Shown here piece after piece: positions 1 through 59,721 of a DNA stretch of 59,721 bases. This stretch comes from a virus. Its lineage: Duplodnaviria > Caudoviricetes. Each line of letters begins with the position of its first letter. Position 1 is the first letter of the stretch. A program made the position numbers and the translations under genes. The notes below the pieces were generated by a model that worked only from the letters and a program-made list of their open reading frames with translations, did no database searches and had not been told where the DNA came from. The stretch is taken from the IMG/VR virus record IMGVR_UViG_3300033153_014453, positions 1 through 59,721 of that record; one strand, 5' to 3'.

Positions 1-240
<240 letters not shown>

Positions 241-263
241 TTTTGTTCTCCTTTTGGCACTTC

Positions 264-698
264 TTATGATTTAACCCGAACCATTCGGGCATAAAAATGT
301 TTCCCTATTAATAATTCGATTGGATAAAAAGGACGATTTCGATGCAATACTCCTACTTCGAGTTTAAAGTTATTTTCATCAAACCATTTGAGCCATTCAT
401 ATAATTGAGCTTCAGCTTTTTCTCCACGGCCAAGAACGGCAACACAAGGATGTTTGTGATAGGCATCCGGTGGTATCCAAACATCTCCATTCTTATCCAA
501 TCGATCCCATGTTTCTTCATCATACCATTCATAATCAGGGTAACATCCATTATATGCAATTACTCCTACACATTCTCGCCCAAATCCAACTTCTCCATTA
601 AGTTCTAAGCGAAGGTTATTTTTATTACACCAATCTATCATCCATTTGATTTTTTCTTCGTGATCCATATCTCTCCCAGATCGCTTCTCGGTGTTCAT
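264..698 (-). CDS. Hypothetical phage protein
   Basis: 144-aa ORF in the early operon with RBS. Confidence 0.7.
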   Translation of the reverse strand: MNTEKRSGRDMDHEEKIKWMIDWCNKNNLRLELNGEVGFGRECVGVIAYNGCYPDYEWYDEETWDRLDKNGDVWIPPDAYHKHPCVAVLGRGEKAEAQLYEWLKWFDENNFKLEVGVLHRNRPFYPIELLIGKHFYARMVRVKS

Positions 699-721
699 TC
701 CCTATTCCTCATATTTTTTGT

Positions 722-973
722 TTAAAACCTCAAATCAGGGTAATCTTTCATTCCATTTTCGAACCATCTTTTCCATTCTTTAGCCCAATCAGGGCGATAT
801 TCAGAAGGATGAAGTAAAACCATTTCCGGGTTCTCGTCATAACAATTGAAGATAGGACATCTATAACATAGACCACCTTGGAAGGGAGGTTCTTTTTTGC
901 CTGGGCAATCTTTTGGGCATTTAGTAGGAAATTCTTCTCCGCCGATTATTATGGTTTCTTTTTTAGATCTCAT
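722..973 (-). CDS. Small Cys-rich protein
   Basis: CPKDC...CYRCPIFNC. Confidence 0.7.
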   Translation of the reverse strand: MRSKKETIIIGGEEFPTKCPKDCPGKKEPPFQGGLCYRCPIFNCYDENPEMVLLHPSEYRPDWAKEWKRWFENGMKDYPDLRF

Positions 974-1307
974 CTTGTAGCCTCTTCATAACACTTATTA
1001 CTTTCTTGCCCTCTAACGGTGAAGGCAACTTATTATATCTCTCCCAAAATTCTTTTTGTTCTGTTTCATTCATCGGTTCAATATCGAATTCTCCTATGTG
1101 GGTTTTATCTTTATCATATTTATCGTCCCAAAAACGTGGATCCGTGCATTTTTTCATGAGATATGGTTTTAATGCTTTAAGAGCATTAGGGATCATGTGA
1201 GTCATTATGCCTTTTATTCCTACCAAGTATTCAATGTCTAGGTAAACATGAGACATATCTGTGTGAAGAATTCCAGTTGTGAGATTGCGTAATCTTTGAA
1301 TGTCCAT
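963..1307 (-). CDS. Hypothetical phage protein
   Basis: 114-aa ORF with RBS, co-oriented. Confidence 0.7.
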   Translation of the reverse strand: MDIQRLRNLTTGILHTDMSHVYLDIEYLVGIKGIMTHMIPNALKALKPYLMKKCTDPRFWDDKYDKDKTHIGEFDIEPMNETEQKEFWERYNKLPSPLEGKKVISVMKRLQDEI

Positions 1308-1412
1308 TTTGGTTTCCTTCTTTTTTATCTAAGATTATTGTAATGCCTACGAAGCGTTATTAATTGTTTCTTTTTCTTTATTTATCACTTTCCCCTTATT
1401 TTTATTTAGGAA

Positions 1413-1796
1413 CTAAACAATATATTCCTCAAGTATTATCACATTTTCCATACTTTTTTCTAATCCTTCTTCCCAACCCTCCCATTTTTCTGCCCATTCT
1501 TTTAATGCAAAGTGGATTTCTGCTATTATTCTTTTTGCTTCTGGTTCTGAGGGTGTTTTGGTTATTACTATTCTGTTATCTTTTTCGCTTTCCATTCCTT
1601 GTAGGTATATGCTTTTATCTTCATAAGACAACCACGGGCCAATTGTGCTATATATACTCCACCCGTTTGAGGCTAGGAATTGTTTATACCCACTGTATTC
1701 ATTGTTACGTCTAAATCTTTCATCCATTTCTAGGATTTTAAACAGGATACGGTTGTTGTAGTTAACTAAATGATAACGTAATTTTGGAGTTTTCAT
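1413..1796 (-). CDS. Hypothetical protein
   Basis: 127-aa ORF, co-oriented. Confidence 0.65.
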   Translation of the reverse strand: MKTPKLRYHLVNYNNRILFKILEMDERFRRNNEYSGYKQFLASNGWSIYSTIGPWLSYEDKSIYLQGMESEKDNRIVITKTPSEPEAKRIIAEIHFALKEWAEKWEGWEEGLEKSMENVIILEEYIV

Positions 1797-1819
1797 TTTA
1801 TAAATCCTTAAAGAGTAAT

Positions 1820-2071
1820 TTACTTTATTTTAAAATCTCTCCAAAGTTTCTCAAGTTTAGATACTAGTTCACTTGGAATATAACCATGACCATAACCATC
1901 TTGGGTAAAATAATGACATAAAGTAGGCTGTTCATTTTCGTCGTTTATCATATAAACAATATTTCCATGGTATTCCTTTTTGTATTTTCCTGTTTTTGGA
2001 TCGGGGTCTAGGTTTATTCCGTCTAGTGAACAGATTAATTTTAGTACCTTTAAATCTTTTATAAAATTCAT
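1820..2071 (-). CDS. Hypothetical protein
   Basis: 83-aa ORF, co-oriented. Confidence 0.6.
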   Translation of the reverse strand: MNFIKDLKVLKLICSLDGINLDPDPKTGKYKKEYHGNIVYMINDENEQPTLCHYFTQDGYGHGYIPSELVSKLEKLWRDFKIK

Positions 2072-2079
2072 TTCTAATT

Positions 2080-2979
2080 CTAATCCTCCATAAAAGGATC
2101 CCAGGATTTTACTTCATAAAGTGTGTTTCTTAAATCTTCTACTAATTGCTCATTATTAGCAGTACACAAAGGCATATAAGAGCAATCTTTAAAATAAGCT
2201 CTACAATTCCAATCCTTGCGCCAAAAGGAGTTTTTTCTACAAGAGTTTATTTGATTTATTATATCTATGGTAGATTTTTTCCATTCATTAAGAGCAAAAG
2301 TAGGATAGCTTCCTTGAAGTTTTATTAAATGCTTCCCAGGATCAAAACGTTTGCTTATGCCTAGGATGTCTAGGGATACTTTTATTTTATCTAATGTCCT
2401 TCCAGTAAAGGCTTGGATTAAGAAAGTATAACCCATAAGTTGAGGATTAGGGTTTATTGTGAAGTTATTAACATATTGAGAAGTTTTGTGGTCTGTGATT
2501 ATTATGTAATCATTGTTTTCAGTTACTAGGTCTATTTTTCCTGCAAAGAAAACTCCAGGTGCGAGTTCTTCCATTAAAGGGAGTTCTACATAAGAAATTT
2601 TTTCATTTAAAGTATGATATTTGTCAAAATAAGCAGTTAAAAGAGAAGAACCGAAGATTAAAGTATAGATAGGATTTTTGTTCCTATCAGTTGGCTGTTC
2701 TTCAAAAGGAGCAAAGTTAGATTGGAATATTTGTATTGATTTTTCATTTTTGTTAGGATCATTTGAAGAATACCAAAATTCTAATGCTTTATGAATTGCT
2801 CGACCGAATTCTAGTTTGTAGGTTTCTTCGCTTTTTCTTGTTAAGCCTAGTTCATGGCGGTTGTAGTAATAAAACTGACATCTTCTGAAGTTGTTAAGCA
2901 TTGAGTTATCATAGACGTAGATGTTTTGTTCACGAAGCTTTTTGAGAACTTCTTTTTTTGAGGCTTTTTCTAAGAGCAT
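2080..2979 (-). CDS. PD-(D/E)XK exonuclease, Cas4/AddB-like with probable Fe-S cluster
   Basis: FGRAIH, GKIDLV...DHKT and QLMGY motifs; one N-terminal plus three C-terminal Cys. Confidence 0.85.
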   Translation of the reverse strand: MLLEKASKKEVLKKLREQNIYVYDNSMLNNFRRCQFYYYNRHELGLTRKSEETYKLEFGRAIHKALEFWYSSNDPNKNEKSIQIFQSNFAPFEEQPTDRNKNPIYTLIFGSSLLTAYFDKYHTLNEKISYVELPLMEELAPGVFFAGKIDLVTENNDYIIITDHKTSQYVNNFTINPNPQLMGYTFLIQAFTGRTLDKIKVSLDILGISKRFDPGKHLIKLQGSYPTFALNEWKKSTIDIINQINSCRKNSFWRKDWNCRAYFKDCSYMPLCTANNEQLVEDLRNTLYEVKSWDPFMED

Positions 2980-3007
2980 TTAGATACCTTTCTAAGTTTA
3001 AGTTTAA

Positions 3008-3859
3008 TTATATTTTAAAAGGAAGCTCTTCACATTGAAAACCAGCAGCTCCTTTATGACCTCCACCGCCGAAAGATTTAGCTATTTTACCACAATCTAT
3101 GTTTTCTTTTGTAGAATACAAAGAAACAGTCCATTTGTTAGCTGGAAGTCTTAAGCGAACAAAAGTAATCATAAGATCGTGCTTTTCCGGATCGTAAACT
3201 GAATTGAAGAGTTTAGAATTAGCAAGACCTTTATTTGCACAAATTGCTTTTAGACCATTTAATTCTGTTTCAAAAGCGTAACGGTTACAGAATTTTTCAT
3301 TTTGTGTTTCTTCGTACTCTATGAGTAATTTACCATTTTTCATTATTTTATTATAAAGTGTTGGATTATTGTCAAATAAATCATGCCATAACGCTTGGTT
3401 ATCAGGAAGCGTATTTTTAATGTTCCTCATTCCGTATTGAAAGGGAAGTACATAAGGACTACTATGATCCCAAACATCATATCTTCCAAGCAGATAAATT
3501 ACATCTGGTGTTAAGGCATATTTGCTATGAACATATTCCCAGGTAAGTTCACATCCAGCTTTGTCTATAGCAAGTAGTTGGCCACCAGAAGCCAAAAAAC
3601 CTCTTTTATGTGCTTCATCTAAAGCTGTTTTATGATGGTCAATCCAATGTAGTTTACATATGTTATTAAGTTTTTCCATATCTTCAAATGGTTGTAAAGT
3701 AAAATCAACCATGAAAACTTTTTCATCCTTTACAATTCTATTCCATGGAAATTTATCTCCATAATTAATTCCGAACATTTCACAATCTGGATATGCGTGT
3801 TTTATAATAGCTCCTGAACAGTGACCATCAAGATCTGCTGAATGATAGAAGCATTTCAT
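3008..3859 (-). CDS. DHH/DHHA1 phosphoesterase (NrnA/NrnB-like)
   Basis: DLDG, MVDF, WIDHH and GGGGHKGAAGF motifs. Confidence 0.92.
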   Translation of the reverse strand: MKCFYHSADLDGHCSGAIIKHAYPDCEMFGINYGDKFPWNRIVKDEKVFMVDFTLQPFEDMEKLNNICKLHWIDHHKTALDEAHKRGFLASGGQLLAIDKAGCELTWEYVHSKYALTPDVIYLLGRYDVWDHSSPYVLPFQYGMRNIKNTLPDNQALWHDLFDNNPTLYNKIMKNGKLLIEYEETQNEKFCNRYAFETELNGLKAICANKGLANSKLFNSVYDPEKHDLMITFVRLRLPANKWTVSLYSTKENIDCGKIAKSFGGGGHKGAAGFQCEELPFKI

Positions 3860-4260
3860 TTTTTATTCTCCCTTCTGTTGTTTTCTGACTTTGGACGTTC
3901 GTCTATTAGATTCTTTGGATCTATTGAGATGATTCCATTACATAAGTAAAGATCGTATGAAATAATAATTGGTTCTACTGGTGTTTCATTAATATATTTA
4001 ATCTTTTCCGGTTCTATGTAAAAATTAGGACACCAATCTCCGCAAGGAGCAAGAGAATAAAATGGAGAGGTATAAACAACGGAATAAGTATAAGTATGGG
4101 GATCTTGAACATAAACATGGGAATAATCCTGGTTTTGACACTCGAAATAGTCCCCACAGTAAAGATTTGTTATTTTTATTCCCTGCTTACATAATTGAAG
4201 TTTGAATTTCCCCGCCCGCTCTATGTGAAGAAAGCCATTTTTATCTATTTTTATTTTCAT
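3856..4260 (-). CDS. Hypothetical protein, paralogue of 4266-4580
   Basis: Shared MKIKIDKNGFLxIERAGKFK and CGDWCP. Confidence 0.75.
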   Translation of the reverse strand: MKIKIDKNGFLHIERAGKFKLQLCKQGIKITNLYCGDYFECQNQDYSHVYVQDPHTYTYSVVYTSPFYSLAPCGDWCPNFYIEPEKIKYINETPVEPIIISYDLYLCNGIISIDPKNLIDERPKSENNRRENKK

Positions 4261-4265
4261 TTTAA

Positions 4266-4580
4266 TTATCCTTCTAAACGTTCATCTATAAGTTCTTCGG
4301 GCTTAAGAATATACAAAATGTTGCATATATTTACTATGATACAATCATCTTCAGTTTTATTTGGCTCTATAAAACTAGGACACCAATCTCCGCATTGTTT
4401 AAAGTCAAATGATAGCACAAGTGTAGAATCTGATGGTTGTGTTGAGTTATTAGTTGCTGAATAAAAAACTTTACCCAGTGGATTTATAGCATTTATTATT
4501 CCATTTTTACAAAATTGAGCTTTAAACTTCCCTGCTCGTTCTATAAAAAGAAAGCCATTTTTATCTATTTTTATTTTCAT
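4266..4580 (-). CDS. Hypothetical protein, paralogue of 3856-4260
   Basis: Same shared motifs. Confidence 0.75.
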   Translation of the reverse strand: MKIKIDKNGFLFIERAGKFKAQFCKNGIINAINPLGKVFYSATNNSTQPSDSTLVLSFDFKQCGDWCPSFIEPNKTEDDCIIVNICNILYILKPEELIDERLEG

Positions 4581-4998
4581 TTTTTACCATCCTATCATAA
4601 AGCACAACATTAACGGTAGCGGCTAAGTTCATGCACCCATTAGTGGGAATATAAACAATATCCCTACACCAGGGCAAAATCCTGTTTCCTAAGGTTGCAT
4701 CTTCAGCCCCGAATACATAAAAAGCTCTTTTGGGGTGCTCATATTCGGGCAGCGGGATACCTTCATCAATTAATTCAATAGCGACGGGAACACAATCATA
4801 GGGCAAAACCGAATGGAGGTCATCAACACGCAAGAAAGGAATACGTTGATAGTGTTTCATTGCATCAGTAAGGGTCCATCCGATACGTCTACCACTAATT
4901 ACTAACATTGCAGCATTGAAAACACCAACCGCTCGCATTGCTGCGCCAACGTTGTTTTTATTTTTTGGATTGTCTAATGCTATTATTGCGTAGCCCAT
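4561..4998 (-). CDS. Minimal SpoU/TrmH-family (SPOUT) RNA methyltransferase
   Basis: NNVGAAMRA, VFGAEDATL and IPTNGCMNLAATV motifs. Confidence 0.9.
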   Translation of the reverse strand: MGYAIIALDNPKNKNNVGAAMRAVGVFNAAMLVISGRRIGWTLTDAMKHYQRIPFLRVDDLHSVLPYDCVPVAIELIDEGIPLPEYEHPKRAFYVFGAEDATLGNRILPWCRDIVYIPTNGCMNLAATVNVVLYDRMVKNENKNR

Positions 4999-5033
4999 TT
5001 TGAATCTTAGTTAATGATTATCATTTAGATATT

Positions 5034-5178
5034 TTATTTTTGTTTTTCATTTTTCTTGATCCATCTTCCTTTCTTATCTCTTGGCCAGTTTTTTCTTTCA
5101 TCTTTCATTATTTTGTATAGATATTCTTTATATCCATTTAGCTGAAAATTATTCTCCACCAATTATTATAGTTTCCAT
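5034..5178 (-). pseudogene. Chimeric gene remnant
   Basis: METIIIGGE*FSAK mirrors ETIIIGGEEFPTK of 722-973; another frame carries an orphan C-terminus ...WPRDKKGRWIKK. Confidence 0.6.
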
Positions 5179-5205
5179 TTTAATTCCCTTTCCTTCTGAA
5201 GAAAG

Positions 5206-5475
5206 TTAATACTCCAACATCTCCCTTGCCCTTTTCTTCACGGTTCGCAGTTGGTAAACCGTGCAAGGACAAGATTCAAGTTTTTTAGATCTCGGGAACC
5301 ATGAAAAACAAACATTGCATTGGACACTCGCCCCGAATCCAAGGCTTGTATTTAAAGGACATTTACGACGCTGGATCTCTGGCGGTTGTTTGAGCCACTT
5401 TTTTACTGCTCTTTTTTCTCCTTCACTGAGCCCAACTTTATCCAAGCCCAATGTCTTCAAAGTTCTCCGTCCCAT
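5206..5475 (-). CDS. Small basic Cys-rich protein
   Basis: CP...CNVC...CPC. Confidence 0.65.
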   Translation of the reverse strand: MGRRTLKTLGLDKVGLSEGEKRAVKKWLKQPPEIQRRKCPLNTSLGFGASVQCNVCFSWFPRSKKLESCPCTVYQLRTVKKRAREMLEY

Positions 5476-5548
5476 TTGAGGGCCTCTATGTTATTTTCAT
5501 TTTTTAACTCCTAGATTATTCTAAGGTTATTCTAAAACCTCTTATAAT

Positions 5549-5743
5549 CTAAGCCAACGAGACCATAAATAATCCATTACGCATCCACCACCAAGAGTAA
5601 AGATCCCACCAAAATACTCCCTGATACCATTTTCCACCTATTAAACAAGTATCCTTTTCGCACCAACCGAGATGTATTAATTGAATCTCGAAAGTGGAAG
5701 GATGCTCTCCTTCGGTTTTCATCTCGAATGGAATAATTTTCAT
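5549..5743 (-). CDS. Small Trp-rich protein
   Basis: ORF with AGGAG RBS. Confidence 0.5.
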   Translation of the reverse strand: MKIIPFEMKTEGEHPSTFEIQLIHLGWCEKDTCLIGGKWYQGVFWWDLYSWWWMRNGLFMVSLA

Positions 5744-5788
5744 GCTAGTTCTCCTAGTTATTATTATATTATATAGTTATTTACTACT

Positions 5789-6223
5789 TTAGCGCATAAC
5801 TCCTCGTTTTTCTCGTAAAAGTTCTAAAATAACTTTCCTCATAAGTTCTTTTTCTAAGGCTTTTTTCTTAGAAGAAGATCTTTTTTTCTTTTTAACATTT
5901 AAATGCTCGAAATCTGTTGTACGTTCTTTTTCTAAAGCCGCATCAAGAGAAGAAGAAGTTAAAGGATAAAGATTAATTAAATCCTCAGGAGTTTTTCCTG
6001 TAGGGATTACATGATTCTTTGGAGCAAGAAAAGAATTATCTTCATCTGAGTCTAGGAATTTTAGCTTGTAGTTATTGTTTATTTCTTCAATTACAAGAAC
6101 ACAATAACCTCTTTTTTCAGGTGGGTCTAGTAAAATGCCTAATTCTCCTTTTCTAGCAAAGCGTTTTATAGGAGAATAAAGCAAAGGATTGTAAGGTTTT
6201 AGTCTTGTTTTTGATTTTTGCAT
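5789..6223 (-). CDS. Hypothetical protein
   Basis: 144-aa ORF with basic C-terminus. Confidence 0.65.
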   Translation of the reverse strand: MQKSKTRLKPYNPLLYSPIKRFARKGELGILLDPPEKRGYCVLVIEEINNNYKLKFLDSDEDNSFLAPKNHVIPTGKTPEDLINLYPLTSSSLDAALEKERTTDFEHLNVKKKKRSSSKKKALEKELMRKVILELLREKRGVMR

Positions 6224-6236
6224 TTTAGTTAGGATT

Positions 6237-6437
6237 CTAATTAGGGTTAAAGAATTTTTCTATTAAGATATTTTTAATAATATGATAAGCAAGAAAAAGA
6301 AATAATCCAAGAGAAAAAAATTTGAGAAAAAGAATAAAATCAAGCTCGTGGTTTGTTAAAAGCATAATTAGTAAAGAAGCTAAAGCTATGTCTAAGATCC
6401 ATAGGCATTGAGATAGGAGCTTAAATAAGAGTTTCAT
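6237..6437 (-). CDS. Small two-TM membrane protein
   Basis: Two hydrophobic stretches. Confidence 0.6.
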   Translation of the reverse strand: MKLLFKLLSQCLWILDIALASLLIMLLTNHELDFILFLKFFSLGLFLFLAYHIIKNILIEKFFNPN

Positions 6438-6508
6438 TTATTGAGTTGTTCCTTTCATAGTAATTGATAATGTGTATGATAAGTTATTTCTTGTTAAAAT
6501 CCTTCTTA

Positions 6509-6633
6509 AGAACAAACCCCTTCCAGGCTATGGAATGCTTAGATAAGTATCTTAAAATAAGCACTAGGCCTTTCATCAAGAGTTTGTTCCAGGTGTCTCT
6601 CCAAGCGGGCGCTACTTATCATAGAGACTACCC
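6509..6633 (-). ncRNA. Candidate structured RNA with two abutting kink-turn hairpins
   Basis: GUCUC-UAU-GAU-AAGU..GCUU-GGA-GAGAC and GGAACAAACUCUU-GAU-GAA-AGGC..GCCU-GGA-AGGGGUUUGUUCU; G-U pairs form only on the - strand. Confidence 0.65.
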
Positions 6634-6665
6634 AGGGGAGCAAAAAGTAGAAAACCAAGCAAGGT

Positions 6666-7019
6666 TTAAGATTTAGATCTTATTCTTATTTCTGGAATAT
6701 CTTTTGTTATTTCCATAACAGCAGTTTCTATTCCTTTTAACAAAAGCGTTGATAACACATTACTTATTGCTTGATACATTCTTTTTATGCTAGTTTTATT
6801 CAGAAGTTTTTCCATTTTTTCTATTTCTTCTGTTATATACTTAGGAATAGATACTTCTAAAAGGATCTTCTCTTGTTCATTAAGTTTAGAAGAGTTTTCT
6901 TTTGTTAATCTTAAAGCATCACTTACTATGAAAGCTAGGAAACTTATTTCTAAATTTTCAGTAGAGAAGTTTATATCTTTAAGCAAGGTTTTTGTATCTT
7001 TAGGAGTGATTTTTTTCAC
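6666..7019 (-). CDS. Hypothetical protein
   Basis: 117-aa ORF, GTG start with AGGAG RBS. Confidence 0.6.
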   Translation of the reverse strand: MKKITPKDTKTLLKDINFSTENLEISFLAFIVSDALRLTKENSSKLNEQEKILLEVSIPKYITEEIEKMEKLLNKTSIKRMYQAISNVLSTLLLKGIETAVMEITKDIPEIRIRSKS

Positions 7020-7030
7020 TGAGAGCTCCT

Positions 7031-7759
7031 TTAGGAAAAAGATAATTGTTTTATGAAATATTCTAAGTGATTTATTTTTTCTTTAAAAGGCTTAAGGTGC
7101 ATAGTTTCAGGAGAGGTTTTGAAGATTTTTACTACAGGCAAGAGTAAGTTTAGCTTATTTACTCCTGTTTGGGAGATTTTTAAATAAGCCCGAGTTGAGG
7201 TAAGGAAAGGAGTTAAGAGTAGTAAGAACTCATAACTTAGTTTAGAAATTAAATATTTAATTGTAGTATTTATCGGAGGATGGAAATTCATACAATTTCT
7301 ACAAAATAATGGATAAGTCATATAATTAAGACAATCTTTGTTTTTGTGAATATTAATAAGCTCGTCAAAAAATAAAGTTTTAAGATCTTCTAAAGATTTA
7401 CCTAAAAATGGCAAGGTGGAAGTTAAGTTTTTATTTAAGTTTTCTCTTTTTGGAAGTTTTATTATAAGATCATTTGCTTGATTCAAAAGGCCTGCTAAGT
7501 TTGTAAAGGTTTTTCTTTGTGTTTGAGCTATTTCTTCTAGTTCAATTAGAGTTAAATTATAACTAGGATCAAAGGATTTTTTCTTCATGCAATCATCAAG
7601 AATTGAGTACATAAAGCTAAAAACTATTTCAAGATATATTTTAGAAGTTTTATTAGCTCTTGCTTTTAGGATTTCTTCTTGAAGAGAGAGGTTAGATTTA
7701 AATACTTCTATGGTTTCTATTATTTCTTTTTGCTCTTTTTCCATTTTTTGTTCTTTCAT
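7031..7759 (-). CDS. Hypothetical helical protein
   Basis: 242-aa ORF. Confidence 0.65.
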   Translation of the reverse strand: MKEQKMEKEQKEIIETIEVFKSNLSLQEEILKARANKTSKIYLEIVFSFMYSILDDCMKKKSFDPSYNLTLIELEEIAQTQRKTFTNLAGLLNQANDLIIKLPKRENLNKNLTSTLPFLGKSLEDLKTLFFDELINIHKNKDCLNYMTYPLFCRNCMNFHPPINTTIKYLISKLSYEFLLLLTPFLTSTRAYLKISQTGVNKLNLLLPVVKIFKTSPETMHLKPFKEKINHLEYFIKQLSFS

Positions 7760-7928
7760 TTTTTTCCTCTTTTTCTTCTTCTTCTTCCATTACATCTTCA
7801 GGATCGGTTAAATAAAACCAATCTTCTTGTTCTTCTTCATTGAAACAAATATCCAATGGGTCTTTTGGTTCTAAGGTAGCAAAAAAGGATTTTCCATTTT
7901 GAGTGAAGAAGTTAAAAAGACTTAGCAT
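7698..7928 (-). CDS. Small acidic protein
   Basis: Glu/Asp-rich; RBS favours ATG at 7928. Confidence 0.5.
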   Translation of the reverse strand: MLSLFNFFTQNGKSFFATLEPKDPLDICFNEEEQEDWFYLTDPEDVMEEEEEKEEKNERTKNGKRAKRNNRNHRSI

Positions 7929-8036
7929 TTGCGCCCCTTTCATTAGATTTAAGGTTAAGGTTAAGATTGGAATCTAAAAAAGAAAGGTTTTTTTATTTTT
8001 TATTTTTTAGCTTTTTAACTTTTTCTTACTTCTTAG

Positions 8037-8390
8037 CTAAACTTCTTGCTCCAAGATCCCAAGCTCTGCTAGCTTAGCAACAACCTTAGGATCGTTTTTT
8101 ATTTTTTCTTCTATTTTTTTGAGAAAACTCTCAGGAGAGGATTTTTCAAGAGGAGCTTTTTTATAGGAAGGTTTTTTCTTTAGCTTTATTATCTGATCTG
8201 GAATAGCATTAGCAACAAGAGTTGAGAACTCTTCATCTAGGGAATTTAATTTTTCCCTGTAGGCTTCTATTTTTTTGAAGCAATTTTTTATTGCTTCTTT
8301 TAATTCTTGTTTTTCTTTAAGGATCTCATTCATCCTTGTGCGTTGTTGTTTTATTATTAAGTGTTCTTTTTGATTTAGTGTAAGAGGCAT
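8037..8390 (-). CDS. Coiled-coil hypothetical protein
   Basis: First ORF after the consensus promoter at 8472-8500. Confidence 0.65.
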   Translation of the reverse strand: MPLTLNQKEHLIIKQQRTRMNEILKEKQELKEAIKNCFKKIEAYREKLNSLDEEFSTLVANAIPDQIIKLKKKPSYKKAPLEKSSPESFLKKIEEKIKNDPKVVAKLAELGILEQEV

Positions 8391-8471
8391 TTTTCTTACC
8401 TTTTGTTAAGAGGTTTTAGAAGGGGAGTTTTCGTTTTTCCATTTTATGCTACAAGGTGTAAAGTTTGGCGT

Positions 8472-8500
8472 ATTATAGCATGAAATGGAATAAATGTCAA
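8472..8500 (-). promoter_or_regulatory. Consensus sigma70 promoter
   Basis: TTGACA-17 bp-TATAAT with extended TG. Confidence 0.9.
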
Positions 8501-8601
8501 GTGGGAAATTCATTAAGGATTCTAATAAGTTAGGGAGAAGACTATAGGTCATAACTACTTAATAGCTACATTATAGTTACATTATAGCTATTAATTTATG
8601 T

Positions 8602-9072
8602 TTAAATTCTCAAATAAATAGGCATATCCTTCTTGTTTAATTGCTTAACCTTCCCATTCGGATAACAAATAACTACTTCAGTTATAACCTCAACTTCTTC
8701 TGCACATACAGTTGAGATACATTCCCCCATAGATATAGTAGCTTTACTTCTTTCATAAAACACGGAATAATTGTTATAAAAATCATCTAACAATGCTGGA
8801 TTACCTATTGCTAACGGTCGAATTATTTTTCCTTTTAGTTTTACAAGAAGTATCTTAACAGGGGAATTATGACGTTTTGCGTAACGTTTGGCTATGCCTG
8901 TGGTTGTAAACGGATCATTATAACAAAAAATCCCCATAGTTCCTTTGAGTGCTTTTGTTGTTTTTCCTTTTAAATAACGCTTGACATACTTTTTCGGCAT
9001 GCAGTCCTTTAGTAATGAATAATGGCCTTTTGAGACTAATTTGTAAGCATAAATTTCTTGTTCTTTTTTCAT
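8602..9072 (-). CDS. Hypothetical protein, tandem paralogue 3
   Basis: AYKLVSKGHYS...KRYL...GIF. Confidence 0.75.
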   Translation of the reverse strand: MKKEQEIYAYKLVSKGHYSLLKDCMPKKYVKRYLKGKTTKALKGTMGIFCYNDPFTTTGIAKRYAKRHNSPVKILLVKLKGKIIRPLAIGNPALLDDFYNNYSVFYERSKATISMGECISTVCAEEVEVITEVVICYPNGKVKQLNKKDMPIYLRI

Positions 9073-9169
9073 TTTTAGTTCTCCTTTGTTATTTCAAGAG
9101 GTTAGCAAGATACCTATTTAGGCGTAGCTACATTATAACTATTTTTTCGAGTTTTTAATTTTTCACCTA

Positions 9170-9613
9170 TTATCTTATTACCTCTTTACCATTCCTAAAC
9201 ACTTTAACAATTTCAACTGGCCTAACTGCATCTACTACATAAGTCCCAGTAAAACTTTGAAAATCTTTTATTGGGTATCTTATGTTGGAACATTGGCATG
9301 TAAGTAGTTTCTTTATATGATCAGTGTAGAATTGTTCAACCTTATCAACAGGGCCAATACTTATTGGTATGTAAATATTTCCTATTATTTCTACCATTAG
9401 AATTTTAGTTATCTTACTATCTGCTAAACTCCATAACTTAGCTGGTTGGATTGCTTGTTTTTCTGTAGCATAAATAAAAGTCCCAAGGGTATTTTTAGGA
9501 GCCCTAGTTATTTTGTTTAATAAGTATCTTTTTCTGTAGTTTTTTGGATAACATTTCTTATATAGAGAATAATGTCCTGCCGAAACTACTTTATAAGCTA
9601 TTTTACCTTTCAT
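9170..9613 (-). CDS. Hypothetical protein, tandem paralogue 2
   Basis: AYKVVSAGHYS...KRYLLNKIT...GTF. Confidence 0.75.
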   Translation of the reverse strand: MKGKIAYKVVSAGHYSLYKKCYPKNYRKRYLLNKITRAPKNTLGTFIYATEKQAIQPAKLWSLADSKITKILMVEIIGNIYIPISIGPVDKVEQFYTDHIKKLLTCQCSNIRYPIKDFQSFTGTYVVDAVRPVEIVKVFRNGKEVIR

Positions 9614-9616
9614 TTT

Positions 9617-10048
9617 TTATCTTCCTTTCTTTTTTGTTTCTTTTCCATTTTCAAATACATGTAAAACTTCAATAGGTTTAATCACATCTGCCAAGTGGGT
9701 ATCCAAGCGAGAAGAAAAATCATTAACCCAAAATCTTACATATTTGATTTTATATTTTTTGTAAAATTCTTCTAAATCATCAACAAACCCAACCCTAATT
9801 GGTATGTAAATATCACCAAGCACTTCTACTCTTAGGACTTTTGTTATTGTATTTTCGGTAGACGATCTTACTTTAGCTTTATGGATTGCTTCCTTTAATG
9901 TTTTATGGATAAAAATTCCCATACTATTTTTAGGTGCTTTTGTTATTTTATTTAATAAATACCTTTTTCTATACTTTTTAGGATAAGAACAATTGCGTAT
10001 TGAATAATGGCCCTTAGATACTACCTTATAAGCTATTTTTCTTTCCAT
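9617..10048 (-). CDS. Hypothetical protein, tandem paralogue 1
   Basis: AYKVVSKGHYS...KRYLLNKIT...GIF. Confidence 0.75.
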   Translation of the reverse strand: MERKIAYKVVSKGHYSIRNCSYPKKYRKRYLLNKITKAPKNSMGIFIHKTLKEAIHKAKVRSSTENTITKVLRVEVLGDIYIPIRVGFVDDLEEFYKKYKIKYVRFWVNDFSSRLDTHLADVIKPIEVLHVFENGKETKKKGR

Positions 10049-10715
10049 TTCTTATTTTCCTTTCTTCAAAAAGTAACTCACTAAGAACAAAATTTTCTCG
10101 ACTATTTAATGGCTTTGAGTTTTTATATCTATTTAATCTTCTTTTAAGAATAAAAATTCTTAACTTTCTAAAACCTTCTTCAAAAGATTTATTAGGTAAG
10201 AAAAAGTTTTTTTGTGTCCAACATTTATTACATTCAGGACATACTAAAATGCCACTTATTTCACTTAAAGGAATCTTTTCACTTCTAGGAAAGACATTTT
10301 TTATGTAAGGTTTCTTGTAAATATAACTTTCACATATTTGACATTTATTAGCATCTCTTAGTTTTATTAATGCTTCTATGGCCCATTTAGGTTTAGCTAG
10401 GGATCTAGACGTGAAAAGATAAATACTTACTCTTCTATCACAAGCGAATCTTCCGAAGGTTTTTAGCTTGTAGATAGAAGCAAATTCCAGAGAAGTTTTA
10501 TCTTTTTCTTTTTCATATTGGATTTTGTTATAAGCTGATTTGTTTTTGGTTGAGATTATGGAAGGTTTTAATGGTTTAGGTTTTTGCTTATTTTCATTTT
10601 TAGTAAGGTTTTTAGGTTTTTTTTCTTTTTCTTTTTCTTTTAAGACTTGTTTTATAGATTTTTTAGGTTTTAGCAAGTTTAGAAGATCGTCTTGGTTGTT
10701 ATTAGTTGTGTTCAT
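10026..10715 (-). CDS. Basic protein with degenerate HNH-like Zn-binding domain
   Basis: RDANKCQIC...LVCPECN; catalytic His not evident. Confidence 0.55.
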   Translation of the reverse strand: MNTTNNNQDDLLNLLKPKKSIKQVLKEKEKEKKPKNLTKNENKQKPKPLKPSIISTKNKSAYNKIQYEKEKDKTSLEFASIYKLKTFGRFACDRRVSIYLFTSRSLAKPKWAIEALIKLRDANKCQICESYIYKKPYIKNVFPRSEKIPLSEISGILVCPECNKCWTQKNFFLPNKSFEEGFRKLRIFILKRRLNRYKNSKPLNSRENFVLSELLFEERKIRNGKKNSL

Positions 10716-15228: not shown

Positions 15229-15272
15229 TTTCTTTGCTCCCTTCTTTTTAAGATTAACAAATAATCCCTCAT

Positions 15273-15305
15273 TCCTACTAGCAAACGAAATGCTTGCTAG
15301 TAGGA
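15273..15305 (-). other. Intergenic hairpin without U-tract (possible processing or stability site)
   Basis: 12-bp stem TCCTACTAGCAA/TTGCTAGTAGGA. Confidence 0.6.
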
Positions 15306-15312
15306 TGAAAGA

Positions 15313-15588
15313 TTATTCTTTTTTCTTAGCTTGTTTGAAGGCTATGGAAATAGTAACTTCCACGCCTTCGATGATTTCACTCTTTGAAAAACTTTTCCCT
15401 CGCTCATTGATAGATTCAATAAGCGGGGAAATTTTATTTTCTTCCTGATTAAACTTCTCCCATGCAGCAGAGAGAATCTCTTCCGCTGCATGAGCGCTTT
15501 TCTCCAGGATGGTTTTTTTCTCATCCTGGAGAAGTTTTAACAATTCCAACTTTTCTTTTGCTGAAAGTTTTTCTAAGTTAATTCCCAT
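15313..15588 (-). CDS. Hypothetical protein
   Basis: Strong RBS; first gene after the promoter at 15736-15764. Confidence 0.7.
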   Translation of the reverse strand: MGINLEKLSAKEKLELLKLLQDEKKTILEKSAHAAEEILSAAWEKFNQEENKISPLIESINERGKSFSKSEIIEGVEVTISIAFKQAKKKE

Positions 15589-15617
15589 TTTTTGCTCCTT
15601 TCTTTCTTGAGGTTAAT

Positions 15618-15668
15618 AAAAACAAAAAGGCCCTTAGCAGTTATTAACTAATAACTACTAAGAACCTT
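15618..15668 (-). terminator. Intrinsic terminator in an early leader
   Basis: 19-bp stem with G-U pairs on the - strand, followed by a U-rich tract. Confidence 0.7.
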
Positions 15669-15735
15669 ACCTTGTTGCTTATTTGATGAATTAAATTTAA
15701 AATACATTCGACTTCTCTTTTCTGGATTTTTCTGT

Positions 15736-15764
15736 ATCTTATCTTTTCTTTTTCCAAAAGTCAA
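15736..15764 (-). promoter_or_regulatory. sigma70-like promoter
   Basis: TTGACT-17 bp-TAAGAT. Confidence 0.7.
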
Positions 15765-15793
15765 GCATTTTTTCAGTTTTTTCTTAGATTCCG

Positions 15794-16261
15794 GGAAAAA
15801 ACTGAGCAATTTTTTGTTCGAGGATTCTTAATGATTTCAAGAGGTTACTGACCTAAAGTGTAAAAGTGTGCTTTTTAAGGACTAATAGGGGGTTTATGGC
15901 AAAGGGAGTGAGGTAGGGTATGGAAGACTTAGGTATGATTGGGAAGGCTTAAGAAGGAACATAATGGGCTATAAAGGATTAGGAAGGCTCCCTAAGAGTG
16001 GAACAAAGCGGCAATAGTGGAATATGAGTAGTAAGTGTACTAATACATACTATATATATATTATTATTATTATTTATTAGTATATATTAGTATTTATTAG
16101 TATTCTTACCCTTTCCTCCCTTTAACCCAATCTTCCTAAGTTTAACTAACCCTTCCTAACCCATGACCCTTCTAGTCCTTAAAAAGCAAGGTTTCGCATT
16201 TTACCTCGATAACCTATTGATTTCACTCATGATCCAGGTTTACAAAAATGCTCACTTTTCC
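15794..16261. other. Putative replication origin: long degenerate inverted repeat around an AT-rich core
   Basis: Arms 15794-15943 and 16126-16261; perfect 16-bp core 15869-15884/16173-16188; IHF-like sites; three 10-bp repeats at 16071-16100. Confidence 0.6.
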
Positions 16262-16394
16262 AGCGATAGAAAAAAGAAAGAATTCTAAGATTTAGAGCAA
16301 AGTAAAGGAAAGAAAAAATTAAAGAAAAGAAAAATAAGCAAGGAAAATAAGAAAAAAGAAAAATAAGAAAAAGAAAAATTAAGAATAAAGGAAT

Positions 16395-16428
16395 AAAAAA
16401 TCTCCCAGGTAAAAATAACCTGGGAGAT
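16395..16428 (-). terminator. Intrinsic terminator of the 16447-17048 cassette
   Basis: 11-bp stem ATCTCCCAGGT/ACCTGGGAGAT plus U-tract. Confidence 0.8.
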
Positions 16429-16446
16429 AAGAAAAGAGAAAAATTA

Positions 16447-16692
16447 CTAGATCCGAAGTTTCTTTCTAGCCCATGCGTGGGCTAGACTTATAATATCTCC
16501 CTCCGTGCCAGTGTCGGCATCGAAGGGATCCAATTCTTGGCACCACTCTACGTCACCGGCCTCTATATGTCGGATGACAGAGCGACCAAATTGAATCAGA
16601 TCAGCGGCGGCCATAGTCAAACCGCCATCCGAGGCCACCCAATTCTCCTGGACGGCCTCAATAATTTCTTTAATTTCTTTGATCTCTTCCAT
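16447..16692 (-). CDS. Small acidic protein
   Basis: AAAGGAG RBS; GC-richer than the genome. Confidence 0.7.
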   Translation of the reverse strand: MEEIKEIKEIIEAVQENWVASDGGLTMAAADLIQFGRSVIRHIEAGDVEWCQELDPFDADTGTEGDIISLAHAWARKKLRI

Positions 16693-16730
16693 AATTTACA
16701 CTCCTTTCTATTTTTTCTATGATTAATAAA

Positions 16731-17048
16731 CTACAGGACCGCACACTCCATGAACGCATGATCCTGCGTTTGAGAGACTATTTTAAAACCCGCTCGTTTG
16801 TATACAGCAATACGGGTTTTTCCTCGTCCATCCGCAAGCGTCGGCTCACAATAGAGCTTTTTAATCCCTGCTTGACGAGCCGAAGCTAAAATAATGCCCC
16901 ATGCTAGACGTAGGGCATTTAGGTTTCCATGACCTTTCCCGGATACGCTAGTCAAACCATCCTCGCCTCGGCGGGACAATTCGACCTCTCCATCGGCGCC
17001 AAGGTACGCTTCAATTGAGCCGATGAAATATCTCCGAGGTTTGGTCAT
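16731..17048 (-). CDS. Putative GNAT-fold acetyltransferase
   Basis: GKGHG, ARQAGIKKLYCE and AVYKRAGF resemble GNAT motifs A/B. Confidence 0.55.
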   Translation of the reverse strand: MTKPRRYFIGSIEAYLGADGEVELSRRGEDGLTSVSGKGHGNLNALRLAWGIILASARQAGIKKLYCEPTLADGRGKTRIAVYKRAGFKIVSQTQDHAFMECAVL

Positions 17049-17080
17049 GATTTTCCTTCTTTCTATTCTTATTTTCTCTC

Positions 17081-17109
17081 ATAATCTCATATCTTCCCTT
17101 GAATGTCAA
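17081..17109 (-). promoter_or_regulatory. sigma70-like promoter of the GNAT cassette
   Basis: TTGACA-17 bp-GATTAT with extended TG. Confidence 0.7.
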
Positions 17110-17500
17110 GAAAAAAATCCTCTTTTCTAAACTTTTCTATTTGTTTTTTCCGCCTATTACTTTTTCACTTCTCTTTTTTCTCCCAGGAGTATTTTTCACT
17201 CTTGTCTTCTTTTGCTTAGCTTCTACTTCCTGGCTCTTTTTCTAAAAAGCATGCTTCTAAAAATAAGCATTCTTTTTTTCTTTCCTTGGCCTTCCGATCA
17301 ACCGGATTTTTGAAAGCGGACGCACAAACCCGGGAAGTGTACCCAAATATAAATTTTATAAAATTTTAATTTTTTAATTTTATAAAATTAAATTTTTATT
17401 TTTTCTATAATTTTTTCTAGAAATTAAAAGTGGAAATTAGGGAAAAAGAAGAAAAAAAGGAAAAAAGGAAAAACCTTCCATTTAGCACGCTTAAAATACC

Positions 17501-17551
17501 AACTTCCACTAAAGGTAATAACTTTCACTAAAACTAACAACTTCCACTAAA
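17501..17551 (+). repeat. Three direct repeats AACTT(C/T)CACTAAA with 19-bp period
   Basis: Copies at 17501, 17520 and 17539. Confidence 0.85.
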
Positions 17552-17598
17552 ATACCTAAAAACCTAGAAAACTTCTCACACAAGTTACCATAAAAAAC

Positions 17599-17627
17599 TT
17601 GACAAACCCATAAAAAGCATTCATAAT
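17599..17627 (+). promoter_or_regulatory. sigma70-like promoter of the morphogenesis operon
   Basis: TTGACA-17 bp-CATAAT, overlapped by inverted repeat AAACCCAT/ATGGGTTT. Confidence 0.75.
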
Positions 17628-17722
17628 GGGTTTAAGGATAGTCCTTAAGTAAGGAAAGAAGAAAAATAGGAAAATAAGAAATAAAAATAAAAAATAAGAA
17701 AAATTTCTAAATCTTACTCCTT

Positions 17723-18581: not shown

Positions 18582-20366
18582 ATGAACTCAACTACTATAA
18601 AAAACCTAGCAAAAATCTTCGCAGATTATGAACTCTACGCTAGAACTTTGCTTAAAATAAGAACAAAAAAACAAAAACTCACAAATCTTGCTTTTAACAA
18701 TCCTCAAAAACGCTTACATCAAGCAATAGAATCTCACATAAAAAAAGCCCCTGATACTTTACCAAGAGTAATAGTCTTAAAAGCTCGCCAAGAAGGGATT
18801 TCTACCTATGCAGAAGGTAGAATCTTTTGGTATACTCACACAAATGAAAACACTGAAAGCAGAATAATCGCTCATGAAAATGAAGCAGGTGAGAATATTT
18901 TCAAAATGTGTAGGCTTTTTTATGAAGAACTACCTGCTAAACTAAGACCTATGCTTAAATATTCGACAAAAAAAGAACTTACTTTTGAAAATCCTAATAA
19001 AAAAACCTATCTTTCTAACCCAGGTCTTAGAAGTAAGCTCTCAGTTCTAACTGCTGGAAAAAAAGAAGCAGGTAGAAGTCAAGCCTTACATCATTTGCAT
19101 GCCTCAGAATTAGCTTCCTGGCAATTTCCTGAAAACATCGTTCCTGCACTTTTACCTACCATTCCGCTTACAAAAAATAATTTCATAATTTATGAATCCA
19201 CCGCTAAAGGCGTTGGTAATTTTTTTCACAAAGAATGGCTAGCAGCCGAACAAGGAGAAAGTAATTTTTTTCCTCATTTTATTCCTTGGTTCGAGCTTCC
19301 TGAGTATAGCGCTCAGTTCAACACCGAAAAAGATAAGGCTATTTTTATAGAAGCCTTAACAGAAGAAGAAAAGGAACTGATAGCTCTATACTCCCTTACA
19401 CCGGAACAACTTCTGTGGCGTAGGCTAGAGATTAGAAATCTCAGCGGCGATGTGGAATTGTTCCGGCAGGAATTTCCATGCTCTCCTGAAGAGGCTTTTA
19501 TAGTAACTGGATCGCCTATTTTTGACAGAATAGCCTTAAGAGAAATGTCCAGAGCAGTAAAAAAGCCTATTTGGAGAGGGTTTGTAGATATAAGGCAAAA
19601 ACTAGTAGCAGATGAAAAAGGAGAATTAAAAATATGGGAGTTTCCTAAGAGAAATTCAGAATATGTAATAGGCGCTGATATAGCAGATGGTGGTGAGGAT
19701 GGAGATTATTCTTGTGCTATTGTTTGGAAAAAAGCAAAATTCCCTTTCATAGCTCACCAAGTAGCAGAATGGCATGGAAGAGTAGATCCTTATTCTTTTG
19801 CTAAGATTTTAGACAAGCTAGGAAATTATTACAACATAGCACTTATAGCTCCAGAAACTAATTCCTTTGGCCAAGGAACTGCTTATGAGCTTAGCAAAAC
19901 TTATGGAAGACTTTTCAGACCAGTAAGAGTTGATAAACTAGGAGCTACTTATAAAGATATCCTAGGCTGGCAAACTACTTTGCATTCTAAAAAGCTCCTA
20001 GTAGCTTATATGTCTCATTGTGTTGCTAAGAAGCTAATTTTCATAAACTCAATAGACCTAATCCGTGAATGTATGACATTCGTGAGAGATAGCTTAAACA
20101 CTGCTGGAAGCGCTGCTGGAAAAGGTCATGATGACAGAGTAATGGCTGCTATGATAGGGCTTTATGCTTTACAGCAAGAAATGCTAAACTTAGATGAATC
20201 AGATGTTAGTATCATGTTCTCCTCAACTGCTGATCCTGTTCCTAAGGAAAAAATACTCTCTAAAGTTAAACTCATGAATGAGATGCAATATAGAATAGAT
20301 CCAGATTTAGAACAGATAATAGAAGAGCCTTATGAAAGTTATGGTAATTCTTGGCTTAATTTATAA
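18582..20366 (+). CDS. terL: Terminase large subunit
   Basis: LKARQEGIS, LHASE, YESTAKG, IGADIA and HDDRVMA motifs. Confidence 0.95.
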   Translation: MNSTTIKNLAKIFADYELYARTLLKIRTKKQKLTNLAFNNPQKRLHQAIESHIKKAPDTLPRVIVLKARQEGISTYAEGRIFWYTHTNENTESRIIAHENEAGENIFKMCRLFYEELPAKLRPMLKYSTKKELTFENPNKKTYLSNPGLRSKLSVLTAGKKEAGRSQALHHLHASELASWQFPENIVPALLPTIPLTKNNFIIYESTAKGVGNFFHKEWLAAEQGESNFFPHFIPWFELPEYSAQFNTEKDKAIFIEALTEEEKELIALYSLTPEQLLWRRLEIRNLSGDVELFRQEFPCSPEEAFIVTGSPIFDRIALREMSRAVKKPIWRGFVDIRQKLVADEKGELKIWEFPKRNSEYVIGADIADGGEDGDYSCAIVWKKAKFPFIAHQVAEWHGRVDPYSFAKILDKLGNYYNIALIAPETNSFGQGTAYELSKTYGRLFRPVRVDKLGATYKDILGWQTTLHSKKLLVAYMSHCVAKKLIFINSIDLIRECMTFVRDSLNTAGSAAGKGHDDRVMAAMIGLYALQQEMLNLDESDVSIMFSSTADPVPKEKILSKVKLMNEMQYRIDPDLEQIIEEPYESYGNSWLNL

Positions 20367-55074: not shown

Positions 55075-55109
55075 TTTTACGCTCCTAAGTATTGTTTTGT
55101 TATTTAGTT

Positions 55110-55162
55110 TATCTAGCAGACCCTAGCTTAGGTGCGGCATTCTAAGTAAGGCCTGCTAGATA
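55110..55162 (-). other. Long intergenic hairpin (~21 bp) without U-tract
   Basis: UAUCUAGCAGGCCUUA-CUUAG..CUAAG-C-UAGGGUCUGCUAGAUA. Confidence 0.7.
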
Positions 55163-55204
55163 GTTAAAAGGTTAAGCTAAGAAGTTAACTAAGAAACAAG
55201 ACTA

Positions 55205-55522: not shown

Positions 55523-55969
55523 TTAATAAACAAACTTATCCACTTCATTACGCTTTTTACCACTAGGATCATCCACATAGGTCCCAGTCTCATCAGCAAC
55601 TTGCCTCGGGACTTCTTTTATCCGAACAGTTCCACCAGAGCCAACATATTCGTCAGTGTTAATATTACCTCCATCCCAAGGCTTGCCTACTGACTTGCAC
55701 AATGAAACCAGAAACCCAAGTCCTGAAGTATTTACTTCTCCAGTATTAGGATCAATACTAGGCAGAGGAGTATTGTAAAAAACAACAACCTCTGCATTAT
55801 CTTCAGGATGGTTAATTGCAAGTTGCCAGGTAAGCATATCCCGGCCGCTTGAGGATTTCTTAGCCTCTACGCCCTTGATGTAGAAACTATAAGTCCCATC
55901 AGGAACTGTTTTAAACTCATCAAGGTGCTTTACGTCATCATAGTTGACGCCAAGATTGATTACAGGCAT
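55523..55969 (-). CDS. Single-stranded DNA-binding protein (DUF669-like)
   Basis: VPDGTY..KKSSSGRDML..RNEV OB-fold pattern; downstream of the Sak4-like ATPase. Confidence 0.75.
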   Translation of the reverse strand: MPVINLGVNYDDVKHLDEFKTVPDGTYSFYIKGVEAKKSSSGRDMLTWQLAINHPEDNAEVVVFYNTPLPSIDPNTGEVNTSGLGFLVSLCKSVGKPWDGGNINTDEYVGSGGTVRIKEVPRQVADETGTYVDDPSGKKRNEVDKFVY

Positions 55970-58182: not shown

Positions 58183-58659
58183 TTAGCTTTTACCAGAAGC
58201 AAGAATGTTTTTATAAGCTATATTTATTCTCTTCATTTCATCCTCGCTTCCGCCCTGGTCTGGATGATACAACCTAGCCAAAGTCTTATAAGCAGCTTTT
58301 ACTAACTCCAAAGGCGCCCCTTCAAGCAAGAAAAGATCAGCATAATCGGAGCTTTCTAGTTCTCTTTCTGGAAAATCAACTAGTTGAACTTCATCGAAGA
58401 ATTTATCTAAAATAAAAACAAGAGTTTCTAGCTCGGATTCTTTTATGTACCAGTATTTGTTGGTGAAATCAAAAAACCTACTACTAGCAGGAATTGATTT
58501 TTTAAGTGTTTCTATAAAAGAAGGATTATAACCAGTAGCTATTTGAAGGACTGGTTGGTTGGAAAAAGGTGCCAAGTAAGGGTCTTTTTTTAGATATTTA
58601 ATAGTAGCTATAGAAAGACCTTTAGCTTTTTGTTGTTTTTGTGCACCTAGTTTTTGCAT
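58183..58659 (-). CDS. J-domain (DnaJ-like) protein with N-terminal extra domain
   Basis: KAAYKTLARLYHPD.GG...INIAY. Confidence 0.88.
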   Translation of the reverse strand: MQKLGAQKQQKAKGLSIATIKYLKKDPYLAPFSNQPVLQIATGYNPSFIETLKKSIPASSRFFDFTNKYWYIKESELETLVFILDKFFDEVQLVDFPERELESSDYADLFLLEGAPLELVKAAYKTLARLYHPDQGGSEDEMKRINIAYKNILASGKS

Positions 58660-58661
58660 CT

Positions 58662-59602: not shown

Positions 59603-59603
59603 T

Positions 59604-59721
<118 letters not shown>

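Follow-up and report, generated by a model that had tools for sequence, protein, structure and literature searches.

The window, i.e., the whole stretch of DNA that was analysed, is an entire IMG/VR virus record of 59,721 bases with an estimated completeness of 90%, and its gene content points to a tailed phage of a bacterium. The genome has a GC content of 0.342, is 91% coding and carries an AAAGGAG-type Shine-Dalgarno motif ahead of 49 of its 61 genes. A structural arm is read rightward (with the terminase at 18582-20366), and the leftward arm encodes a family A DNA polymerase, a primase/helicase, a Sak4-like annealing protein, an exonuclease, a DHH phosphoesterase and a small SpoU-family methylase. 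The closest cultured phages are distant, with at most 31.7% identity in the terminase and at most about 28% in the polymerase. No tRNA or tmRNA genes were found in the window.

The SpoU-family RNA methylase (145 aa, 4561-4998 on the − strand; PF00588, E 1.8e-16) lacks the N-terminal substrate-binding domain and is encoded 1.5 kb downstream of the hairpin element described below; its relatives (47-68% identical) are found on 10 viral contigs and on 13 contigs from unrelated bacterial MAG lineages. Within the divergent intergenic region of 674 nt (17049-17722) lie three 24-nt direct repeats with 19 nt spacing (17490-17551) as well as AT-rich palindromes (17345-17412), which resemble operators or iterons placed where one arm gives way to the other.

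The element of interest at 6509-6633 is present as a single copy in the record, and the ORFs flanking it are all encoded on the − strand. The locus comprises the following features, given in the order of leftward transcription with the single + strand feature last:

8472-8500, − strand: sigma-70-type promoter, perfect 12/12 match (TTGACA, 17 nt, TATAAT with TG, i.e., an extended −10)
6666-7019, − strand: upstream 117-aa ORF, coding-like (0.415 bits/codon), of no family
6438-6665, − strand: spacer of 228 nt with GC 0.377 between the 117-aa and 66-aa ORFs
6591-6633, − strand: hairpin 1, kink-turn-like, metastable
6509-6590, − strand: hairpin 2, 82 nt, the robust core
6475-6484, − strand: perfect 10-nt complement of the bulged strand of hairpin 1 (6623-6614)
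6237-6437, − strand: downstream 66-aa hydrophobic ORF, doubtful as a gene
6464-6676, + strand: antisense 70-aa ORF with a TTG start, rejected as the selected element

The promoter at 8500-8472 is the nearest strong one upstream of the element, 1.85 kb away, and would drive transcription through it. Immediately before the element there is no promoter-like site, and the − strand has no terminator-like site between 5000 and 9000. Co-oriented ORFs on both sides and this promoter place the element between cistrons. We rejected an intrinsic terminator, given that no U run follows hairpin 2 and that the − strand shows no terminator-like site, and dropped an attP tRNA fragment that had been considered for the element.

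Upstream of the spacer, the 117-aa ORF yields an all-helical AlphaFold model of low confidence (pLDDT 52) with no sign of an L7Ae-like sheet; the neighbouring 144-aa ORF has a codon score of 0.361. On the downstream side, the earlier note had seen a gene for a 66-aa membrane protein. A hydrophobic ORF of this length is indeed present, with a Shine-Dalgarno motif ca. 12 nt from its AUG, but its coding signal is weak (0.017 bits/codon, below all 28 training genes), and a word-based search of a protein collection returned no candidate, itself included. This ORF may therefore be a U-rich non-coding stretch instead of a membrane gene, in which case the spacer would extend to 442 nt (6224-6665). The idea that the element regulates this ORF in cis is weakened accordingly because hairpin 2 ends 71 nt before the AUG and because the ORF itself is doubtful.

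Two hairpins on the transcribed strand and a competing helix

Every letter and pairing that had been listed for the − strand of 6509-6633 was borne out by direct reading. Hairpin 1 has an interrupted C stem of 9 bp (GGGU/ACCU and GUCUC/GAGAC) followed by a UAU bulge, the pairs G6620.A6600, A6619.G6601 and U6618.G6602, an NC stem of only four weak pairs (AAGU/GCUU) and a 7-nt loop. Hairpin 2 is built from a C stem of 13 bp including three G-U pairs, a GAU bulge and the pairs G6574.A6522, A6573.G6523 and A6572.G6524, beyond which AGGC/GCCU leads into an apical arm of 8 bp plus 4 bp. The full model comprises 48 pairs (36 Watson-Crick, 7 G-U and 5 G.A/A.G). As had been proposed, the G-U wobbles, i.e., 7 of the 48 pairs, exist only on the − strand, and the kink-turn reading is likewise possible only on this transcribed strand. 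The segment is also GC-rich for an AT-rich genome, as claimed before: its GC content of 0.44 compares with 0.342 for the genome and 0.31 locally, falls into the top 5.3% of all 125-nt windows and exceeds that of every listed non-coding gap (0.22-0.38).

A 70-codon open frame on the + strand spans the same segment, and the long stem is also an inverted repeat at the level of DNA, so that selection might conceivably act on this ORF (6464-6676) or on a DNA site (e.g., an origin or an inverted repeat bound by protein) and not on RNA. We consider this very improbable. The ORF begins with TTG, is antisense to all its neighbours and has a codon score of −0.055 bits/codon, which lies in the range of shadow ORFs. 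An exhaustive HMMER search against 1.84 billion representatives gave three matches, all to long repeat proteins, and BLASTP against one of these gave an E value of 15. Selection on this frame, which the earlier note had set against its own RNA reading, thus finds no backing in either codon score or credible relatives. As a DNA palindrome, the structure would contain mismatches at 7 of 48 pairs, and no iterons are present around the element. Mini-ORFs of 27-39 aa on the − strand were considered and dropped.

Folded as the exact 125 nt of the − strand, the element forms both hairpins in RNAfold (−40.3 kcal/mol; z −2.50), a stability that 1 shuffle in 200 equals. The same 125 nt of the + strand reach −31.7 kcal/mol (z −1.86; 8 of 200 shuffles), i.e., the element folds 8.6 kcal/mol better than its complement. 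With flanking sequence this stability signal is gone (z −0.57 when 166 nt are folded, −0.63 when 269 nt are), and at least 30 of 11,928 sliding 90-nt windows fold more stably than the element.

The two hairpins behave differently in context. Hairpin 2 is predicted in every context, with a pair probability of 0.997-0.999 in 269 nt, while that of hairpin 1 drops to 0.06-0.10 because it loses to a long-range helix between 6623-6614 and 6484-6475. This helix is a perfect 10 bp, has a probability of about 0.87 and encloses hairpin 2. Over these 269 nt, the long-range helix takes the place of hairpin 1 in the minimum-energy fold as well as in the centroid fold, with a gap of 2.5 kcal/mol. Predicted folds of the growing chain have hairpin 1 forming first and being displaced only after 6484-6475 has been made. 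Of 1000 shuffles, 45 contained a long-range helix of this length. Since the energy model credits neither sheared G.A pairs nor a bound protein, it may underrate hairpin 1. Neither of the alternative folds occupies the ribosome-binding region of the next ORF. Of the two abutting hairpins described in the earlier note, the second thus stands with a probability of about 1.0, whereas the first is not the favoured fold in context.

Kink-turn rules and chance frequency

Standard kink-turns combine a 3-nt bulge, tandem G.A/A.G pairs and a C helix; flanks are permissive if −1b:−1n is not G:C and 3b:3n is not Watson-Crick, and G at 3n favours folding (rules as laid out in the part of PMC8191799 available to us). 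Both by direct reading and by descriptor, hairpin 1 fits these rules with C:G at −1b:−1n, U.G at 3b:3n and G at 3n, and so does hairpin 2 with U:A, A.G and G at the same positions. The earlier claim that both loops match the K-turn consensus is therefore allowed by these published sequence rules, and the third pair of hairpin 2 is of the Kt-7 type A.G as described. From the same portion of PMC8191799 we note that U:A at −1b:−1n folds weakly in a Kt-7 context and that the HOLDH k-turn, which combines U:A with A.G, folds weakly in Mg2+ and folds with L7Ae.

How often would such loops arise by chance? A loose kink-turn descriptor matches 72 times in the window. A strict version (C stem of at least 5, NC stem of at least 4, span of at most 90) gave 10 matches compared to 8.22 ± 2.92 in a background of 200 dinucleotide shuffles, i.e., there is no enrichment. 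Among the 200 shuffles, 79 contained a match of the grade of hairpin 2 (C stem of at least 8), and 2.5 Mb of real loci had 0.38 such matches per 60 kb. One kink-turn-like loop by itself is thus no more than chance would produce here, and the motif carries little information. An abutting pair of strict matches on the same strand was seen in 1 of 200 shuffles (ca. 0.005 per window) and not once in 193 other loci with 2,507,269 bases. Such a pair is notable for one window, yet it is expected many times across a scan of this size because the element was picked from a very large one.

These results bear on whether the element is a genuine double kink-turn RNA bound by a host protein of the L7Ae family (of the YbxF/YlxQ type) or by another kink-turn binder. 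A bound protein would hold hairpin 1 in place against the long-range helix, and the RNA would thereby act as a two-state switch, a protein sponge or an RNP scaffold. The two loops comply with all sequence rules in the accessible part of PMC8191799, the abutting pair is rare in shuffles and in the 2.5 Mb of other loci, and the reading exists on the transcribed strand alone. It is also the only explanation to account for both rule-fitting loops and the competing partner of hairpin 1, whose bulged strand has a perfect 10-bp complement, with a helix of that length seen in only 45 of 1000 shuffles. Bacterial L7Ae homologues are counted among the K-turn binders in the excerpt of PMC4316175 that we could use.

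Against this interpretation, no gene of the L7Ae/L30e family (PF01248) was found in the phage at E ≤ 10, while the same search was positive in 9 of 14 control genomes. L7Ae/kink-turn recognition is best known from archaea and eukaryotes, and to our knowledge bacterial YbxF and YlxQ still have no clear role. Single motifs are at chance level, also at the grade of hairpin 2, the pair was picked from a very large scan, and none of the Rfam families matches, those of the kink-turn-bearing bacterial motifs included. Hairpin 1 has only a short and weak NC stem, and the switch would have no visible output, as either fold leaves the ribosome-binding region of the next ORF free. Altogether, we regard a protein-bound double kink-turn as unlikely. 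The more specific proposal that a dedicated double kink-turn RNA in the replication-arm operon of a phage captures a host L7Ae-family protein (YbxF/YlxQ type) as an mRNA switch or decoy appears less probable still. If true, bacterial viruses would gain their first described kink-turn RNP element (our literature searches turned up none), they would be shown to use the L7Ae/kink-turn recognition system, and RNA engineering would be offered a compact natural two-kink-turn module. In sum, the underlying sequence observation is accurate, and its reading as kink-turns is legitimate but unproven.

Relatives of the phage and of its element

Rfam returned no match for the whole window at the gathering threshold, and at E ≤ 10 the region of 6300-6800 gave only two irrelevant matches with E = 3. 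In line with the earlier note, no known family can be assigned; the covariance models without a match include drum, RAGATH-18, HOLDH, T-box, SAM-I and CD-box sRNAs. A covariance model built from the single sequence and the proposed structure, G.A pairs included, recovered only the element itself (160 bits) in 418,577 bases and nothing in another 223,994 bases. With filters off, the best other scores were 13.1 bits for locus L093 and 11.6 bits (E 0.4) for locus L116; the former (L093 4800-4935) is a plain terminator-like palindrome without GA pairs. Blastn and nhmmer searches with a 241-nt region against 10 loci gave nothing significant, and blastn against 50,697 phage records gave no match. 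Among DNA patterns, a 19-mer had no match, the core of hairpin 2 had eight viral matches of which the covariance model confirmed none, and the double kink-turn had none in genome contigs. Two kink-turn-like matches at L123 3704-3551 (− strand) are antisense to an ORF and show no fold (z +0.86), and we read them as chance. One DNA sequencing run contained a fraction of 0.06 of the words; it yielded only short fragments of a near relative, none of which was usable at the element. With no homologue in the searched collections, there is no sign of selection on the element.

The neighbouring proteins are similarly isolated. Those of 117 aa, 144 aa and 209 aa had no relatives in viral contigs, and the 242-aa neighbour had one homologue (P0001), which is 95% identical and encoded on a 4.5-kb metagenome contig. 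The 10 viral loci with the SpoU methylase share only that gene with the window and show no synteny, and the loci found with the DHH protein (L092 and L093) are not syntenic with the window either. Searching with the terminase, we found L012 as the only true relative in 80 viral loci and considered the best 80 of 285 metagenome relatives; among the matches listed, true relatives by this protein (47-55% identity) are L012 and L115-L124.

Only L116 among these relatives extends into the leftward arm. There, the homologues of the window genes at 10026-10715 and 58183-58659 lie 1.8 kb apart as opposed to about 11 kb in the window (comparing window 1-10026 plus 58660-59721 with L116:2612-4426), so that the whole block bearing the element is missing. 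This block of about 9-11 kb, which is replaced in L116, holds the methylase, DHH and exonuclease genes as well as the hairpin element. Judging from this genome comparison, the element sits in a lineage-specific accessory block.

Could the hairpins then have no function at all, i.e., be chance structures in a lineage-specific and poorly constrained spacer, for example of decayed or imported sequence, with a coincidental kink-turn look? An orphan element in an accessory block missing from L116 fits this explanation, as do the neighbouring small ORFs without relatives except for one 95% identical protein. Fold z-scores vanish with the flanks, many local folds in the genome are more stable, kink-turn-like motifs are as common as in shuffles by both the loose (72) and the strict count (10), and hairpin 1 is not the favoured fold. 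On the other hand, the GC content of 0.44 stands apart from that of the other listed spacers (0.22-0.38), the fold is strand-specific (z −2.5), the abutting pair is rare, and, with 91% of the genome coding, a spacer of at least 228 nt is unusual. Weighing these points, we see an absence of function as somewhat unlikely, though as a more serious contender than a protein-bound double kink-turn.

Other spacers of this phage and of L116 are structured as well. In the window, a cluster of the genome's most stable local folds lies at 15240-17030 on the − strand (including −44.3 kcal/mol at 15452-15541, −40.4 at 15242-15331 and −38.0 at 16572-16661), where near-perfect hairpins of 12-27 bp with GC of up to 0.57 adjoin the divergent control region and partly overlap ORFs of 81-105 aa; Rfam is silent here. 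Further stable hairpins on the − strand (−29 to −32 kcal/mol per 90 nt) are found at 55102-55191, 55722-55811 and 55862-55951, in or beside spacers of 130 nt and 317 nt in the replication arm. A G+C-rich spacer of 285 nt in L116 (L116:907-1190, − strand) forms four or five hairpins with −129.8 kcal/mol for 326 nt (z −3.75; none of 100 shuffles as stable). One of these, at 1154-1108, is a strong and compact kink-turn-like hairpin with a C stem of 10 bp, a UGU bulge, G.A/A.G pairs and then a Watson-Crick 3b:3n. This spacer has no Rfam match (eight weak ones, best E 0.23) and cannot be aligned to the element in the window (11.6 bits, E 0.4). The phage and its relative L116 thus hold several unclassified structured spacers that are worth revisiting. 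As it stands, the element at 6509-6633 is a single orphan sequence from a novel metagenomic phage, and its main value is that of a pointer.

A candidate processing or stability element and comparable systems

Our preferred but tentative reading, with the chances still somewhat against it, is that the element acts in cis as a structured spacer within the leftward polycistronic mRNA, most likely with a role in intercistronic processing or stability. We infer this role from position and shape only. With regard to position, the ORFs are co-oriented on the − strand, the 12/12 promoter lies 1.85 kb upstream, and there is neither a promoter-like site just ahead of the element nor a − strand terminator-like site around it. 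With regard to shape, hairpin 2 appears in every context, the fold is specific to the − strand (199 of 200 shuffles are worse) where the G-U pairs form, and the GC content is raised to 0.44. The + strand ORF lacks support, which also argues for this reading.

On the proposed course of events, the leftward transcript would carry the segment in the spacer after the 117-aa gene with the 82 nt of hairpin 2 as its stable core. Hairpin 1 would form first during transcription and then compete with the 10-bp helix to the stretch 25 nt downstream of hairpin 2. The long irregular hairpin could be cut by a host double-strand RNase or could block exonucleases, and the messages on either side might thereby gain their own ends and lifetimes in the manner of the RNase III signals of phage T7. 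The kink-turn-type loops would be compatible with a processing role, given that it is an internal loop that limits cleavage to a single strand; they may bind a host protein too, which the processing reading does not need.

Several observations speak against a processing or stability role. The element has no homologue, L116 is without the whole block, and the stability of the fold is not exceptional, with z-scores of −0.57 and −0.63 once flanks are included and no place in the top 30 windows. Under this reading, the two rule-fitting loops would be left unexplained as a coincidence. A T7-like series of sites is missing, as none of the operon's other spacers contributes a comparable hairpin to the 30 most stable windows.

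Among known systems, the archaeal L7Ae leaders and operators resemble the element in placing a kink-turn hairpin in an untranslated region of mRNA with a possible two-state design (as far as covered by the available parts of PMC5539422 and PMC6298567). They differ in that the host of this phage is bacterial by promoter and Shine-Dalgarno signals, that no L7Ae gene is present in cis, and that the kink-turns lie at least 71 nt from the next start codon and cover no ribosome-binding site. A translational operator of the L7Ae type was rejected on these grounds (the next AUG, at 6437, lies well past the end of hairpin 2 at 6509, and PF01248 is absent at E ≤ 10). Box C/D RNAs pair a C box (RUGAUGA) with a D box (CUGA) and additionally contain C'/D' and guides of 10-12 nt. 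We rejected a box C/D guide RNA because the element has no D-box CUGA (with UGGA and GGGA-type strands instead), no match to CD-box models and no L7Ae gene in the phage. Two close kink-turns are likewise a feature of box C/D sRNAs and of the double kink-turn module of euryarchaeal RNase P RNA, but the latter has both in one helix and the former pair C with D and C' with D', whereas the phage element has two separate hairpins (on what the accessible text of PMC5499556 describes).

If real, the kink-turns would join the kink-turn-bearing hairpins of mRNAs or ncRNAs, an already known kind. The intergenic drum, RAGATH-18, HOLDH and Actinomyces-1 RNAs of the Weinberg/Breaker set are similar as hairpin-type RNAs with a kink-turn from bacterial or phage-like sources, and HOLDH shares the combination of U:A and A.G with hairpin 2; they comprise many covarying members, unlike the single sequence found here that has no Rfam match even at E ≤ 10 (motifs as presented in the portion of PMC8191799 at hand). 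Kt-7 of H. marismortui is comparable in its C helix, 3-nt bulge, tandem G.A/A.G and G at 3n, as well as in the A.G pair of hairpin 2, and hairpin 1 shares C:G at −1b:−1n, which is common in standard kink-turns; compared to Kt-7, the phage element is known from its sequence pattern alone, and its hairpin 2 has U:A at −1b:−1n and would be a weak folder (same portion of PMC8191799).

The closest parallel to the processing or stability reading is phage T7, whose polycistronic mRNA precursor carries RNase III processing signals whose internal loops bring about cleavage of one strand only, leaving 3' hairpins that stabilise the RNA (according to the available sections of PMC3867540). Compared to these signals, the element in the window is a single site without a series, and its role is a candidate one only; what it has in common with them, on the account in those sections of PMC3867540, is an irregular hairpin with an internal loop that lies between the cistrons of a polycistronic phage mRNA.
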